IMG/VR virus record: IMGVR_UViG_3300037258_001214
Span: 1-64,000 of that record
Direction: 5' to 3' (one strand)
Source: a virus
DNA length: 64,000 bases
The notes beneath the pieces were generated by a model. The model searched no databases, was not told the DNA's origin, and worked only from the letters and a program-made list of their open reading frames with translations. Positions 3,777 to 62,364 of this stretch are shown here, piece after piece (position 1 is the first letter of the stretch; every line of letters starts with the position of its first letter). The translations under genes and the position numbers were made by a program.

Positions 3777-4991
3777 TCAGTCTCCCTTGACGTTGACGAT
3801 CTGGCGGAGCGTGTGCTTGATGGTCACCAGGTCGGCGGCGTCGGCCATCACAGTGTCGATCGGCTTGTAAGCGCCGGGGATCTCGTCCAGGAACGCGTCC
3901 GAGCGGCCCCACTCAATGCCCTCCATCGCGGCGTCGAGCTGCTCGCGGGTGAACGTCTTGCGGGCTACGGAGCGGCTGAAGTTGCGGCCAGCGCCGTGGG
4001 GCGAGGAGTTGAGCGAGAGCTTGTTCCCGAGTCCTTCGACCACGTACGAGGCTGTTCCCATCGAACCGGGGATCAGGCCGGGCTTTCCCTTGCTGGCGTC
4101 GATCGCGCCCTTGCGGGACAGCCAGACGTGGCCGCGCCGCCCCTTGTCGCTGCGCTTCCAGTAGGCGGCCAGCTCGCCGGCCATCTGCTCGGTGTAGTTG
4201 TGGTGGCACTGGATGGTGTCCTCGATCCGCACGCTGCCGCCCATGAAGTCCTCAAGGCAGCGGTGGGTGCGGTCGAGCATCTCTTCGCGGTTGTAGCGGG
4301 CGAATTCCTGAGCCCACCGCAGGTCGCGCAGGTAGGCCCAGAATTCCGGCTCGCCTTCGACGAGGTAGGCGAGATCCGGGTCCGGCAGGCTGATCCACCG
4401 GCGCTCGCACTGTTCCTGCGCGATCTTGATGTGCCGGACGGCCAGCTTGTTCCCGACGCCGCGCGATCCGGAGTGCAGGAACAGCCAGACGCGGTCCTGC
4501 TCGTCGAGTGAGATCTCGATGAAGTGGTTGCCGCTGCCGAGCGAGCCGAGTTGGAGCCGCCAGTTCGGGGCGATCTGCTCGGCGCTGTCAATGCCGTCTC
4601 GTAGCTCCAGGGTGGCGATCAGGTCGGCTGGGCCGCGGTGCTCGCGGATCTCGGTGTTGTACTTGCCTGCCGAAAGCGGGACGGCCTGCTCGATCGATTC
4701 CCGCAGCCGAGCGAGCGGTGGCGCGTCAGCGCCGACCAGGTACTCGCGGGTCAGTTCCGTGCGGGCGGCCATCATGCCGCAGCCGATGTCGACGCCTACC
4801 GCGGCGGGCATGATCGCGCCGAGCGTCGGGATGACGCTGCCGACCGTGGCGCCTTTCCCCTGGTGGGCATCGGGCATCAGCGCGAGGTGCGGGAAGATGA
4901 ACGGCATCGACGCGGTGTTCTCGGCTTGCTCGCGGGCTTGCGGTTCCAGGATCGATGCCCAGTTAAAGAACTTCTTGCTTATCTGCTCCAC
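3777..4991 (-). CDS. rtcB: RtcB-family RNA ligase
   Basis: MPDAHQGKG, VGVDIGCG, GSLGSGNHFIE, HSGSRG, HHNY, RKGA, PGSMG, SSPHGAGR motifs. Confidence 0.95.
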   Translation of the reverse strand: MEQISKKFFNWASILEPQAREQAENTASMPFIFPHLALMPDAHQGKGATVGSVIPTLGAIMPAAVGVDIGCGMMAARTELTREYLVGADAPPLARLRESIEQAVPLSAGKYNTEIREHRGPADLIATLELRDGIDSAEQIAPNWRLQLGSLGSGNHFIEISLDEQDRVWLFLHSGSRGVGNKLAVRHIKIAQEQCERRWISLPDPDLAYLVEGEPEFWAYLRDLRWAQEFARYNREEMLDRTHRCLEDFMGGSVRIEDTIQCHHNYTEQMAGELAAYWKRSDKGRRGHVWLSRKGAIDASKGKPGLIPGSMGTASYVVEGLGNKLSLNSSPHGAGRNFSRSVARKTFTREQLDAAMEGIEWGRSDAFLDEIPGAYKPIDTVMADAADLVTIKHTLRQIVNVKGD

Positions 4992-47265: not shown

Positions 47266-47273
47266 CGAGCGGC

Positions 47274-47881
47274 TTGACGGGTGGTAGCACAACCGGCTAG
47301 GGTGGTACTACCACCTAGAGGGGAGCCCGAGATGCACCGCATAGCAGTCAAGATGCCAGCGGCGGCCGACCACGCCCCGCTGTCCGTGCTGAACCGGACC
47401 GGACGGGGCATCCGCACCACGATCGTCTGCTCGTGCGAGTGGATGCCGGCCAAGGCGCCCGCCGCCGCGTCCACGATGAACAACTCGCACATGGCGCACC
47501 GCCGCAAGCAGGGAATGCCCCGTGCGGACTACTCGGCCACCGTGTTCGGCGAAGGCCCGTGGATGGGCCTGACGTGGGATGAGTGGCACGACGCGCACGG
47601 CGACGAGAACGTGGACCCCTACACCGGGATGTCCCGTGCCTAACCAGCATGCCACCAAGCCCAGGGCCGTCCGGTTGCCGGGCGGCCTTGAGGCGCGCGT
47701 GAAGGCAGCTGCGGAAGCGGACGGCGGGACCGTCAACGCCTTCATCGTCGCCGCGATCGAGGAGAAGCTGGAGCGGCGCGGTAGCACCACCCCGGCCGGC
47801 CGGGTAGCACCACCCGCTGTCACCTTCACTGCGCCGCTCGACAGCCCGGATGCCCGTCGCCGGACGGGAGGAACCAGGTGA
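47274..47881 (+). other. Moron: promoter/operator, hypothetical gene (47332-47643) and RHH/Arc-like gene (47636-47881)
   Basis: TTGACG at 47274; palindrome GGTGGTA-C-TACCACC at 47301-47315; RAVRLPGGLEARVKAAAEADGGTVNAFIVAAIEEKL. Confidence 0.7.
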
Positions 47882-49112
47882 GCCCGTTCCGCAGTCGCCA
47901 GCAGCCGCCTCCGCGGCGGCAGCCGCATCCCGACGCGCGCATTGAGGCCGAGTTCCAGCGGATCATCTCGCTGCGGAAGGCCGTTGCCCGCAAAGAGGGA
48001 CTCGCCGCGAAGGACCACGAGCAGATCACCGCCATGCGAGAGCAACTCGCGCAGCACCCGACATGGGACCGGGCTCCGAAGCTGGCGGCAGCAGGTCGAT
48101 GCGCTCCTGGACGAAGTGGAGGAACTGGACGGCGACGTCACGAAGCTCCACGACGAGATCGCCGCGCGGATCGGCAAGATTGATGACGCCGACCTGGCGT
48201 GGCTGGAAAGCGGTCAGCCATGATCCCCGCCGAGCTGGACCAGATCCGGGACCGCCTCCGTCCGCACGGCCCGCACGTCTGCGATGACCGCTGCACCTGC
48301 CCGGTTCACGGCACGCCGCTGATCTACTGGCCAGCGGGGGACGATCACGCCTGCCGGGACATCACCTGCAAGTACGGACACGGTGGCGCGCTAGCGCCTG
48401 CAGCGGAACCTCCCGCCTCGTAAGCTACAGCTATGGCCGAACCGCGCGAGCTCATCATCACCGACGACGGGGAAGCGCTCTTCTCCGGCCATGTCGGCAT
48501 GCGCGTCCAACTGCCAGCCCAGCAGCTCCGGTGCTCTCCTGACCTCGCCGCCGCGATCCGCGAGCTGGACGCCGCCGCCGAGCCGGGCCGGCCCTCTCCG
48601 TCGCTGCTGATCTTCGGTGCCAGCGAGATCATCGCGGACGAGTCGGTGCTGTCCGGCGACTGGCACCTGGAGCAGGCCGGCCGCGTGATCCAGACCGGAC
48701 ACCTGGATGCAGCCTCGCTAGACTCGGCCGCCTCGTAAGCTACGATTCACCCAGGACGCCTCAGCCGCGTCCGTCCCGCGCTGCAACAGCGCTCAGATGA
48801 TCCCGCAACGGGTGCAAGCCTCACAGGAGATTGCGCCCCGTGCCGGAAACCTTGCCCGCGCCGCCTGATAACAGGCCGTACGTGCCGATGCACGAGCCCG
48901 GGCATGAGATCCGCACGCTATCCCTCGACGGCACCCGCAAGCACCGGTGGAAGCAGGTCGGCTGGCAGGGCCAGACCGGCGCCATCTACGGCCTCGGCGA
49001 GAAGCCGCAGCTGCACGAGCCGGGATCGTTCTCGCCGCTCTACGTGATGGTCGATTCTGACTACGTAGAGCTTCCCTCTGAGCTTTCGAGGGGAGGTGAT
49101 GCAGCGGAATGA
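47878..49112 (+). CDS. Four small accessory genes (47878-48223 with a +1 frameshift near 48079; 48220-48423; 48433-48738; 48831-49112)
   Basis: Coupled ORFs between terL and portal. Confidence 0.55.
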
Positions 49113-50925
49113 GTATGCCTTTCGTCCAGCCGTCAGCCATGCCGACCGGCTCCGCCACGCTCGGAGCACCGATCGGCCTGTCATCGACGCAGCCCATCGA
49201 CGACCGCCAGATGTCCATGCTTCCCGTGGGCAGCCAGCCATGGCCGCCACCGCAATACGATCCGGTCAGCTACCAGCACCGGATCTGGAATGCGTGGTGG
49301 ACCGGGGACCGCCAGATGCTGGCATGGGTTTATTACAACCTCGGAGCCAATTCGCCCTACGGTCGCGCTTTCTTTGCCACTACCGGTGAAAAGGGAATGC
49401 CGATGCCGCGCCCTGGCCAGTACAGGGGCGGCTTGCTGGGCAGTATTGAATACTCGTTCTGGTTAAGTGAGGCGAGCCCGTACCCCCAGGGGAGAAGCGC
49501 ACCCGCCTGCACGTCCCCATCGCCGGCGACATCGCGCAGACCTCCGCGTCGCTGCTGTTCTCCTCGCCGCCCGAGCTGAAGACGACGCTCACCGGGCCGG
49601 AGGGCGTCGCGAACCAGGCGTGGCTCAATGCCCTGATCGACGACGGCTTCCACACGCGGCTCCTGGAGGGCGGCGAGATGTGCGCGGGACTCGGCGGGGT
49701 GTACCTGCGGATCGTGTGGGACACCTCGGTCAGTGACAAGCCCTGGATCCAGCCGGTCTCCGCTGATGTCGCGGTGCCGCAGTTCGCCTACGACAAGCTC
49801 CGGTCGGCGACGTTCTGGCGGGTGCTGGAGGATAACGGATCGGACGTGGTCCGGCACCTGGAGATGCACGCGCCCGGTCAGAACCAGGTCATCCACGGTG
49901 TCTACTCCGGCGGCCAGTCCGACCTCGGCGAGATCGTCCCCATGTCCGATTTCCCGGCCACTGCGCGGATCTTCGCCGACCTGCAGGGCGACACGCTGAA
50001 CCTGCCCAACCTGCCGTTCGACGCGTCCACGGTCACCTACATCCCGAACCTGAAGCCCAACAGGATCTGGCGGGACCTCGGCCCGGAGCTGTGGCCGCTG
50101 GGCCGGTCGGATTTCCAGGGCGTCGAGCCGCTGATGGACGCCCTGGACCACACCTACTCGAACTGGATGCGGGACATCGACCTGGCGGCCATGCGCCTCA
50201 TCGTCCCGGCCGAGTACCTGGACAATATCGGGAGGGGAAAAGGGGCGGTTTTCGAGCCTGACCGCCGCGTGTTCACGCCCCTGTCGATGCTCCACGACGG
50301 AGGCGGCGCGCCGTCGATCACCGCCAACCAGTTCGCGATCCGCTGGCGGGAACATTCCGAGACCTGCCAGGACCTGGCCAACCGCATCGTCCAGGAAGCC
50401 GGGTACAGCGCTCAGTCCTTCGGCGACTACCAGGGCAACGCCCCGACCGCGACGGAGATCGAGGCCCGGGAGCGCACCAGCCTGATGACCCGGAAGAAGA
50501 AGATCCTGTACTGGCGGCCGTCGCTCCAGGACGCCATCTACTCGCTGATGTGCGTGGCCAGGCTGTACTTCGGCGCGTCCGCGATCACGCCGGAACGGCC
50601 GGATATCAACTTCCCCGCCGTGGCGCTCCCCGACGAGCAGGCCCTGGCGCAGACCGTGGCCACGCTGGCAGGCGCCGAGGCTGCGTCGAAGGCCACCTTG
50701 GTCGCGATGGCGCACCCGGAGTGGACGAAAGAAGAAGTCAACGCGGAGGTCCAGCAGATCCGCGCTGAGATCGGCACCGAGCTGGCCGCGCACGCGAAGA
50801 TCGCGCTGGCCCAGCCGCCGGGGACGTCGATCCAGGAGATGGAGGCGGGGCTGGAGCAGATGGCCCCGGTCACCGACGACACGGGTGCAGATGAGGGTAC
50901 CGGCGACCAGGAAGGCGGTTCGTGA
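49109..50925 (+). CDS. Portal protein, split by an 8-nt coding gap at 49463-49470 (~602 aa if joined)
   Basis: 5' frame ends ...IEYSFW; 3' frame resumes GEPVPPGEKRTRLHVPIAGDIAQTSASLLF...GRSDF...TATEI; lies after terL. Confidence 0.88.
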
Positions 50926-57273: not shown

Positions 57274-58811
57274 ATGCCCGGTCCGGACGTCTTGCCCCCG
57301 CTGGCGTATTTCCAGCACCAGATAGTGCTCATCCCGAAGCAGTTCGGCTACGTGGGCAGCTACACCCGTGGCATGCTCGACGTGGAGCAGGTGCAAGACC
57401 GCGCCTTCGGTCAGATGATGTACCGGTTCACCACCAGCGTCCTGTCCGGGCGTACCGTCACCGAGACGCAGCGGGCGTCGGTCAAGGTGCCTGCCAGCTG
57501 GTGGCAGCACCTGAAGAGGACGGCTGGCGAACGGCACGCGGAATGGATCCGGAAGCCGCACAGCCCGTGGCTGCTGTTCATCCTCCCGCTCGACATCCTC
57601 ACCATCGTGCCCCGCGTCTACCTCGTCCCGTGGTTCCTGCGCCGGCATCCGGTGAGGTACGCCGAGATCACCGCCGAAGTCCGCTTCACGCGCGACACGC
57701 TCTACCCCGGCGCCGATGTCTCGCTTCCGCATGACCGCTTCGGCGTGCCGGTCATGTGGGAGTCGCTGGAGATCGCGCCGATGGCCCCGGACGGCGAGCC
57801 GTGGACGCTGGACGACTATGGGGCGCCGCGCTTCGTCAGCCGCCATGAGCTTCTCGGCGAGATCTACCGGGACACGGACCTGATCAACGCTAGGGGGGCC
57901 TTCGGCGGCATGATCACGCCGGACGGTGTCCTCGACTGGCTCGGCCAGCACGGCGTCAGCGTTGACCAGCTCGTCGCCAGGAGTGCCCTGTGAGCGGGCC
58001 GCGAGGTGCGGCATGAGCCTGACCACCGACCCGGAGGACCTGCGCCTCGGCCGTGGTGCTGACCGGGAGCCTGGCCCGCAGAACACGGCCTACCTGGTCC
58101 TGTCCGACGGGGAGCGCGCCAAGGGCTTCGTGCGGCCGGTGCGGCTGTCCTACCGGCACGCCGGCATCCCCGGCCCGCGCTGGCCGCTCCGCGATCTCAC
58201 CGGCGAGGAGCAGGAACGCTACGCAGGCAGCGGCTACGCCAGGTACGAGGAATACCCGCCTGACGACCTGTCCGCGCTCGGCCGGTTCTGGACCCAGGCG
58301 CAACTCGACGGCATCGGCAAGGGCTGCCGCGCGGTCACGACCATGAACCGGGCCATCGCGGAGACTTACAGCCGCACGCCCGGCTTCTACGGGGCCACCT
58401 ACTGCTGCTCCTGCCGTCTTCACCTGCCCGTGGGGCCGCAGGGAGAGTTCACCTGGATCGAGCCTGACGGGTCGGAGGCGGGGAACCGCGTTGGCACCTG
58501 AGCAGGCGGAGGACGCCTACCCCGTCGCCTACTGTGCTCCCGGCCGGCGCTTCGCCGCCGCGCTCACCCTGATGTTCAAGGGCGAGGAGGTCGCGCGGAT
58601 CGTCGAGCACCCGTGGCTTGAGGGGACCGCGGGCGTCTACGTCGTGGCCGAAGATCGGCTGGACCTGACCAAGCTGCTCCCGGTCAGGTGCGAGGTCTCC
58701 GAGCCGTTGCCGTGGCGTGACCCCAACTGGGTGTACGGGGCGCTCGTGAACACGCCCATACGGGGCATCTGCCCCGCTGTAGGCGTAACGGGCATCTCGG
58801 CGTTACCATGA
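57274..58811 (+). CDS. Three accessory genes between scaffold and capsid (57274-57993, 58013-58501, 58491-58811)
   Basis: Middle gene has YLVLS..ERAKGFVRPVR..AETY..FYGATYC; the last has TTA as penultimate codon. Confidence 0.6.
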
Positions 58812-60962: not shown

Positions 60963-61721
60963 ATGCCCACCCTGGCGCCGTACAGCAACGCGAGCTCGGA
61001 CGTCTTCCCGGGCGGCCTGCTTGAGCTGATCGTCCAGTTCGAGTCCAGCATGAACTCGGGCCAGGCGTGCGCGGCCAGCGGCGTCACGATCGGCATCACC
61101 CAGTCTGGCGCCCCCGACTCCGGCCAGGGCACGCCGGTGGCCACGACCTCAGCCGGGATCGTCACGCTGGGGATGGGCCTGTACCAGTACACCTGGCCCG
61201 TCCCCGAGAGCACCATGCCGGGCACCTACCTGGTGACGTGGACCGGGGTCCGGGCCAGCGACAGCGAGACGGTCACGTACTCCCAGGCCGCGACGGTCGC
61301 GGCCAACCCGGAGGCCGTCCCGCTGCCCGGCCTGTATGCCAGCGTGGCGCAGTACCGGGCCTGGTCCGGTGACCAGTGGACCCCGGCGCAGCTGGTCCAG
61401 GTGAAACTGCAGCGGGCCACCGAGGACATCGACGTGGCCCTGGTCGCCGCGGTGTACCGCACCGACGCGGACGGCATGCCCTTGGACGCGATGCTGGCCA
61501 ATGTCCTGGTCCGGGCCACCTCGGCGCAGGTGCAGTACCTGCTGGCGGTCAACGACGACAGCGGCATCAAGCGCGAGTTCGCCAGCACCAGCGTGGGCGG
61601 CGTGTCGGCCACCCGGTCGGCGCGGATGCAGGGCGGCGCGCTGCCGCCGCTGGCCCCGCGCGCCCTCTCGATCCTCCGCGTCGCCGGCGTCCTGCCAGCT
61701 GCGCCTCTCATTTCCTGGTTA
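60963..61721 (+). CDS. Probable head-tail adaptor with N-terminal Ig-like domain; apparent end at TGG-TTA-G (61716-61722)
   Basis: YASVAQY, LQRATEDID, RATSAQVQY, LAPRALSILRVAGVL; beyond the TTA the frame is junk overlapping the next gene, which has its own AGGAG RBS. Confidence 0.65.
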
Positions 61722-61734
61722 GGAGCAGCAAGCA

Positions 61735-62364
61735 ATGTTCACCATCCCCTCGAACGCGAGCCCGGCATCCCCGGTGACCTACGAGTGGCTCCAGGACCTC
61801 ATGGAGTCCCAGGCGCAGGAAGCCGTCGCCATCGCCGCGATCGCGGGAGGCTTCCCGGGCCCAGGCGCCAGCGGCTACCTCGGCTGGTCGGCCCCGGTGT
61901 GGCACGCGACCTCCACCGCGGCGCTGACGTCCACCGACATCTACGTGATCGCCGTCTACGTGCCGGTGGCCGGGACCGCGACCTTCGTGGACGTGGACGC
62001 CACCACCGCGGGCACCGTCACCGTCGCCGACACCGGCCTTTACACCCTGGCCGGGACGAAGCTGGCATCCGCGGCGACCGCGCAGCTGACCACGAACTCC
62101 GCGGCGTGGGGCGCCGGGATCAACACGTGGCAGTACGTCACCCCGGTCGCCCTGGCCGCGGGCGTCTACTACGCGACGATCGAGACCACCAGCTCGGGTG
62201 CGCCGTCGCTGGCGGCCAGCCCGGCGAGCCCGGTGATCAACTTCAACCTGCCGTCCAACGTCTACAACTACGCGACGGACAGCACCGGCACCATCCCGTC
62301 CTCGATCACCCCGTCCGGCCTGACCGGCGTGGTGACCGCGCAGCCGTGGGTCGGCATCCGCTAA
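61735..62364 (+). CDS. Thr/Ala/Gly-rich virion structural protein
   Basis: Beta-rich composition, in the late operon. Confidence 0.6.
   Translation: MFTIPSNASPASPVTYEWLQDLMESQAQEAVAIAAIAGGFPGPGASGYLGWSAPVWHATSTAALTSTDIYVIAVYVPVAGTATFVDVDATTAGTVTVADTGLYTLAGTKLASAATAQLTTNSAAWGAGINTWQYVTPVALAAGVYYATIETTSSGAPSLAASPASPVINFNLPSNVYNYATDSTGTIPSSITPSGLTGVVTAQPWVGIR

Follow-up and report, generated by a model that had tools for sequence, protein, structure and literature searches.

A TTA-led coding gap in a provirus portal gene, recurrent among its relatives: a candidate for UUA hungry-codon bypassing

Background

How could a full-length portal protein be obtained from a gene in which eight nucleotides separate two coding segments that lie in different frames? 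The question is raised by an IMG/VR provirus record of 94,375 nt (70.6% GC), of which the first 64 kb, here called the window, were analysed. Translational bypassing, the process considered here, is one of the least common ways in which translation deviates from standard decoding. A tyrosine integrase gene lies at the left end of the record, which also encodes a large terminase, an endolysin, a head-tail adaptor and siphovirus tail genes; its host has been placed at the level of Actinomycetota (Atlas). Beside the integrase lies a full-length gene for RtcB RNA ligase (window 3777-4991, minus strand; PF01139, E 2e-109).

UUA-led gaps have been described in the terminase gene of phiHau3 (g6/g7/g8) and in the StrepC.1 and S. 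catenulae prophages (Smith et al. 2013; Antonov et al. 2023, PMC10732093), gaps being present in 3 of 100 terminase genes (PMC10732093). Bypassing in phiHau3 has partial experimental support, and in E. coli recoding rose twofold when a UGA was introduced into the gap in the outgoing frame (PMC10732093). The gap has been proposed to act as a sensor: without charged tRNA-Leu(UAA), as in young, bldA-off mycelium, ribosomes would hop and the packaging protein would be made (Smith 2013; PMC10732093). According to a preprint (bioRxiv 10.1101/2022.08.31.505936, citing Bonocora et al. 2011), the 50-nt bypass of T4 gene 60 is associated with a mobE (MobA) homing-endonuclease cassette; in the same account, DNA that has the bypassed insert is safe from the nuclease of the cassette, and some T4 relatives retain the gap after nuclease loss. 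In the hungry-codon bypassing outlined for E. coli by Gallant & Lindsley, the peptidyl-tRNA can slide to a matching codon farther downstream when starvation depletes the tRNA needed in the A site. The byps of Magnusiomyces capitatus mitochondria are given as hairpin-forming elements of 27-55 nt (Lang et al. 2014).

Methods

Homologues were searched for among 5.8 billion proteins. Portal loci were drawn from viral, genome and metagenome collections, and frame changes were placed against an intact homologue.

Results and discussion

The portal gene of the window carries exactly eight extra nucleotides

The frame opened by the ATG at 49109 passes through a TTA triplet and ends at 49577-79 after 156 aa; a second frame opens right behind the TGA at 49468-70 and continues to 50925 (484 aa). 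The 3′ part matches the SPP1_portal family (PF05133) with 49.5 bits against a gathering cut-off of 25.5 (E 4e-13). The features of the locus are:

49109..49462, plus strand: portal 5′ coding segment, 118 codons, Met to Trp118; 93% identity to residues 1-119 of the intact homologue P0003
49313..49462, plus strand: AT-rich, low-GC3 stretch before the gap; 57.3% GC
49460..49462, plus strand: putative take-off codon TGG (Trp118), the last codon in common with intact homologues before the insert
49463..49470, plus strand: 8-nt coding gap TTAAGTGA, placed by comparison with intact homologues and with 8-mers at the same site in relatives
49463-65, plus strand: TTA, first triplet of the gap and proposed hungry A-site codon
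49466-67, plus strand: AG, interior of the gap
49468-70, plus strand: TGA, 3′ end of the gap, proposed landing triplet and also a stop in the outgoing frame
49471..50925, plus strand: portal 3′ coding segment, resume codon GGC (49471-73), 484 codons plus stop; PF05133; at most 87% identity to 599-aa homologues
49577..49579, plus strand: stop met when TTA is decoded normally, giving the 156-aa product

Full-length homologues are about 600 aa long and at most 87% identical to the 3′ part of the window gene. Twelve of them, 62-81% identical to the 5′ product P0001 (a range that includes the out-of-frame tail of P0001), were aligned, and all read EYSFW-G(E/D/Q)P(V/T)PPGEK with zero residues between W and G. 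Since nothing stands between these two residues in the homologues, exactly 8 nt are extra in the window and their placement is unique: TGG GGC is restored only by deleting 49463-70. Homopolymers are absent from the site. A preliminary description of this DNA, which had taken TGG at 49460-62 as the take-off codon, TTA/AG/TGA at 49463-70 as the gap and GGC at 49471-73 as the point of resumption, was thus correct to the base. Its further statements that deletion of the gap joins the frame from 49109 to the frame ending at 50925, and that normal decoding leads to a 156-aa product, hold as well; with the gap removed the gene is a 602-aa ORF with no other stop. The FW-G junction that it expected in homologues, free of LSE-like residues, is the one found.

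TTA had been called very rare in this genome, and it occurs in frame in only 7 of 18,708 codons of the 94-kb record, as counted from an approximate gene call based on GC3; the portal genes of single-frame relatives, about 36,400 codons in all, lack it. The AT-richness noted for the preceding ~150 nt is equally real, their 57.3% GC placing them in the lowest 0.6% of 150-nt windows (window mean 70.8%). Between codons 30 and 120 the median GC3 is 0.79 in gapped and 0.91 in intact relatives (MWU p 0.001, the rows not being independent). As judged from base composition, the low GC before the gap could reflect selection for slowly translated or unstructured mRNA, or a foreign co-conversion tract.

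The palindrome AGTATT-G-AATACT noted in this AT-rich stretch is indeed there, but it owes its core, GAR TAC TC, to the codons of the conserved residues E-Y-S, and the core occurs in intact relatives too. The local fold of 49420-49520 is no better than that of shuffled sequences (z 0.39, single sequence), and covariation is absent from the consensus fold of six same-site loci, so that a conserved stimulatory hairpin is unsupported; a stimulatory role for the palindrome and the AT-rich stretch has weak support. Nor did folding at the window site recover stimulators of the phiHau3 type (5′ stem-loop, internal SD). The G-rich GAGG/AGGGG overlaps the landing site.

Between terminase and portal the window holds a 1.8-kb block of small ORFs (47266-49108), one of them weakly HicB/Arc-like. 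Terminase and portal genes are adjacent in the intact relatives L003 and L008, and parts of the block resemble the interval between the HNH gene and the portal gene of L004.

Portal gaps recur among relatives and both gene halves are under purifying selection

Twenty-two distinct close portal loci were collected, 16 gapped and 6 intact. The scan of genome contigs gave a single relative, intact, in a Pseudonocardiaceae MAG. A wider scan added 78 more distant loci (41-60% identity), nearly all single-frame; the gapped exceptions are L048 and L057, with CGA|TTAC CGC|ATC and CGA|TTACC CGT|ATC, and L076, whose portal gene has three gaps of 4, 5 and 7 nt (L076:2220-2400). Together with these three loci the series amounts to 20 distinct gaps, from 4 to 28 nt long and spread over 8 sites within the first ~125 codons. 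Among cultured phages the closest portal is 38% identical, and none of the portals matched is interrupted, and a literature search returned no report of portal gaps.

Several sites are used repeatedly. At the FW|G site of the window, TTAAGTGA is also carried by L020 and L023, TTAAAAGG by L006 and TTACGAGG by L007 and L009, which bears out the expectation that further TTA-initiated gaps would be met at this position. Upstream of FW|G, the site after IWDA (GCT) holds the gaps TTACGCA and TTACGAACGAGCC, the site after LAWV (GTT or GTG) holds TTAGCGGGTC, TTATAACCCGTC and one 28-nt gap, and the site after YY (TAC) holds seven different gaps of 11-18 nt. The portal genes of L022, L024 and L026 have two gaps apiece; those of L022 sum to 18 nt, so that the gene regains its first frame and appears unbroken to tblastn.

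L020 and L023 differ from the window at about 25% of nearby bases and yet share its 8-mer, which makes an assembly error very unlikely. Once the gaps are taken out, each gene that reaches its end yields a product of about 600 aa and has no further stop. In comparisons of gapped genes with one another, dN/dS was 0.06-0.28 for the segment before the gap and 0.19-0.38 for the segment after it; values this low on either side point to purifying selection and indicate that both halves are maintained as protein. Gapped and intact genes are interspersed in the tree, and the site used by the window requires at least three gains or losses, a pattern that would fit mobility or recombination.

Another distant portal locus has two frame changes near its 3′ end (L080:4590-4700); these lack TTA and are probably ordinary errors or decay.

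The gaps follow a common design

A TTA in the incoming frame opens all 20 distinct gaps. Comparison of the last triplet of the gap with the take-off codon shows the first two bases to be the same in 17 of the 20, and two or more of the three to be shared in every one; control triplets shifted by 1, 2 and 3 nt matched in 0/18, 0/15 and 0/11 cases. For amino acids of four-box codon families the landing triplet is synonymous (GTT/GTG to GTC, GCT to GCA/GCC, CGA to CGT/CGC, ACT to ACG). After Tyr (8 distinct gaps) it is TAA or TAG in six cases, TAC once (following TAT) and TTC once, and after Trp it is TGA or AGG. Take-off and landing codons are identical in none of the 20. The take-off codon is often a rare, T- or A-ending one (GCT, GTT, ACT, TAT, CGA) at positions where intact alleles use GCC/GCG, GTC/GTG or CGG. 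The pair in the window, TGG and TGA, has the first two bases in common and is near-cognate, not synonymous.

Three relatives bear directly on how such gaps could be passed. In L026 a 12-nt gap keeps the frame and has TAA for its second codon, in L024 an 18-nt gap, also in frame, closes with TAG, and in L021 no single-shift path leads from one frame to the other. No single frameshift can therefore rescue these three genes.

A hop from UGG to UGA and its alternatives

From this comparison of sequences we consider TTAAGTGA to be, probably, a programmed coding gap that is skipped by UUA hungry-codon bypassing from UGG to UGA, yielding a 602-aa portal. The ribosome would stand with peptidyl-tRNA-Trp on UGG in the P site and with UUA, the rarest codon of the 70.6% GC genome, in the A site. 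Scarce or slow UUA tRNA would make it pause, the peptidyl-tRNA would unpair, the mRNA would slide by 8 nt, and the anticodon would re-pair with the near-cognate UGA (two of three bases) before decoding restarts at GGC. The product would be an SPP1-type portal of 602 aa with the junction ...EYSFW-GEPVPPGEK..., to be recognized by the predicted junction peptide ...SFWGEPVPPGEK; ribosomes that decode UUA would end in the 156-aa dead-end product. The hop from UGG to a near-cognate UGA, suggested in the preliminary description for the window, is supported by the design of the family as a whole, in which TTA comes first, landing and take-off triplets match and some gaps are in frame with internal stops. 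That the ribosome hops, how efficiently it does so and whether a bldA-like tRNA-Leu(UAA) is involved are inferences. Portal, and with it virions, might be made only while UUA tRNA is scarce, as suggested in the preliminary description, or UUA may be simply the slow codon that a hop requires. Two properties of the landing triplet count against bypassing, namely that UGA is near-cognate only and that it is itself a stop codon; so does the lack of a significant local RNA structure. Because Trp has a single codon, the landing triplet in the window is a near-cognate stop in place of a synonymous codon, and a stop in the outgoing frame sits naturally inside the gap.

The 8 nt might instead be a disabling insertion, leaving a portal pseudogene in a decaying provirus that makes no full-length portal. 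The record is an integrated provirus, and its late adaptor gene (60963-61718) also has its stop replaced by TTA, both of which would suit decay. We nevertheless regard this explanation as improbable: the same 8-mer occupies the same site in two phages as diverged as L020 and L023 are from the window, 16 of the 22 close relatives have gaps of the same design in portal genes free of other stops or frameshifts, dN/dS between gapped genes is low on both halves (0.06-0.38), and twenty random indels would not all start in frame with the rarest codon. That the gap arose in sequencing or assembly is scarcely conceivable, since independent contigs from different samples have the identical insert or variants of the same length at the same site, where no homopolymer is found.

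Two further explanations would keep the gene active by other means. In one, UUA is read as Leu and a -1 or +2 frameshift follows near AGU GAG G, so that 2-3 residues are added and the junction reads W-L-S-(E)-G. Formally, the window permits a single shift from 8 nt past the start of TTA onward, and the authors of the phiHau3 study at first could not exclude frameshifting (PMC10732093). TGA keeps the outgoing frame closed as far as GGC, so the shift could occur only after TTA and AGT had been decoded, adding LS(E), whereas the FW-G junction is invariant in intact homologues and shows no length variation; a slippery heptamer is absent at AGT GAG G, the route is closed to L026, L024 and L021, and the match between the end of the gap and the take-off codon is left unexplained. 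We hold such a shift to be very unlikely. In the other, the portal consists of two polypeptides, an N-terminal piece of 118 aa and a re-initiated C-terminal piece, which assemble. Public gene calls do contain the 3′ part alone (the 415-aa P0005, for example, and many of ~420, 485 and 510 aa), but the first start in the 3′ frame is the ATG at 49678, 69 conserved codons past the junction. The break point, moreover, varies among 8 sites and several genes have 2-3 gaps, so that 3-4 pieces lacking start codons would be needed, and assembly from separate pieces seems highly improbable. With frameshifting and re-initiation both implausible, the most economical reading is a hop that takes off at UGG, lands on UGA and resumes decoding at GGC.

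HNH genes adjoin many gapped portal genes

An HNH gene (PF01844 or PF14279, over the cut-off) ends 0-35 nt from the portal start in L007, L009, L010, L017, L021, L024 and L026, the distance being 1-9 nt in L010, L017, L021 and L026. Coordinates of six of these genes are:

L007:733-1443, HNH gene
L009:1976-2965, HNH gene
L010:2077-2997, HNH gene
L017:1181-2311, HNH gene
L021:1409-2449, HNH gene
L026:16-1062, HNH gene

An HNH gene lies farther upstream of the portal in L004, L048 and L076, and L006 has a different gene of the HNH_3 type. Enough upstream DNA was available for 16 gapped loci; 11 of these have an HNH gene upstream, as against 0 of 5 close intact loci. As several distant intact loci do carry one, the link between HNH genes and gaps is statistical, not absolute. 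HNH lineages roughly track the gap site.

Near the portal gene of the window no HNH gene was detected, a Pfam search of the ten flanking small ORFs giving one weak HicB/Arc-like match, and a search of the whole record with HNH models gave only a sub-threshold match at 23.6 kb. L020, a bearer of the same 8-mer, is also without an HNH gene. By analogy with T4 mobE and gene 60, the gaps could have originated as bypassable inserts left by an HNH cassette or shielding against it. This rationale fits many of the relatives; it does not fit the window as it stands, which has no such gene. In the absence of the endonuclease gene the gap of the window would be a relic, would protect against related phages or would have been co-opted for regulation. 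It could also, as proposed for the phiHau3 terminase, serve as a sensor of the UUA-decoding capacity of the host. No tRNA gene, for UUA or any other codon, was found in the whole record, so UUA decoding depends on the host; with the host placed in Actinomycetota and no further, bldA-type control at the portal gene is our assumption.

In-frame TTA codons at the ends of other genes

Within window 58803-58811 an in-frame TTA stands one codon ahead of a TGA stop, and this stop and the following ATG overlap (GCG TTA CC ATG A). This TTA is 5 nt before the start codon, the spacing described for the upstream ORF of adpA (PMC10732093).

The head-tail adaptor-like gene at 60963-61718 ends ...TCC TGG TTA GGAGCAGCAAGCA ATG (window 61716-61737). 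Nearly all of its 120 listed homologues are 252 aa long, and the three whose DNA was read end in TGG TAG, TGG TAA and TGG TGA, from which it follows that the stop codon of the adaptor gene has been replaced by TTA in the window phage. The frame stays open for 280 further codons, across the next gene. The UUA could act here as a conditional end of the protein, or it could be a point mutation in the provirus, in which case it could point to some provirus decay.

Comparison with known bypass systems

The closest parallel is phiHau3, whose gaps, re-read from JX182369, are GGC|TTACTCC GGT|AAG and TCT|TTAACGG TCC|ACG. Here as there, the coding sequence of an essential DNA-packaging gene in a high-GC actinophage is broken by a short non-coding block, TTA directly follows the take-off codon, the triplet at the end of the gap matches that codon, and the junction is invariant in intact homologues. 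The window differs in the gene concerned (portal, not terminase), in gap length (8 nt against 7 or 10) and in having Trp at take-off and the stop UGA at landing, where phiHau3 lands on synonymous codons. Gaps are also far more frequent, in 16 of 22 close portal relatives against 3 of 100 terminase genes. In the phiHau3 genome (L029, JX182369) a tRNA-Trp(CCA) gene (1200-1272) lies upstream of the gapped terminase gene.

With T4 gene 60 the portal gaps share matching take-off and landing codons, a poorly decoded A-site codon at take-off and, in relatives, a free-standing HNH gene that adjoins the gapped gene as mobE does. T4 relatives that keep the gap without the nuclease would parallel the window. 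The two systems differ in the length of the gap (8 nt in the window against 50) and in the A-site codon (the sense codon UUA against UAG); neither a take-off stem-loop nor a nascent-peptide signal was detected in the window, no endonuclease gene is near its portal, and there is no sequence homology. The reporters of Gallant & Lindsley were engineered and of low efficiency, whereas the arrangement described here is natural and conserved in an essential gene. As with the mitochondrial byps, many short inserts are possible per gene (up to three in L076) and their distribution among relatives is patchy; byps differ in being mitochondrial, in forming hairpins and in following no UUA rule.

Conclusions

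Up to now, the UUA-triggered form of bypassing has been known from three terminase genes, together with a single experimental study that was conclusive in part. The mechanism considered here is the one already proposed for the phiHau3 terminase; what is new is the portal gene, the Trp take-off with a stop as landing triplet and the size of the natural series. That series comprises 20 distinct gaps at 8 sites, 4-28 nt long; a gene can have as many as three of them, and some are in frame and contain stops. The rules that can be read from it are that UUA comes first, that take-off and landing codons have two bases in common and are never identical, and that stop codons serve as landing triplets after Trp and Tyr. 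For annotation it matters that gene callers split or truncate these essential genes, which appear in public protein sets as products of 415, ~485 or ~510 aa.

A broader scheme, which we offer tentatively and think rather unlikely as a whole, is that TTA-led gaps are a general device of actinophages: free-standing HNH cassettes moving through packaging genes would leave short inserts that destroy their own target and are tolerated because ribosomes hop over them at the slowest codon of a high-GC host; in phages without the nuclease, such as this one, the relic would be co-opted, with the TTAs at protein ends in this genome, to couple virion production to a bldA-like state of the host. In any event the series connects two questions, whether phages sense the bldA state of their hosts and whether bypassed gaps are scars of homing endonucleases or shields against them.
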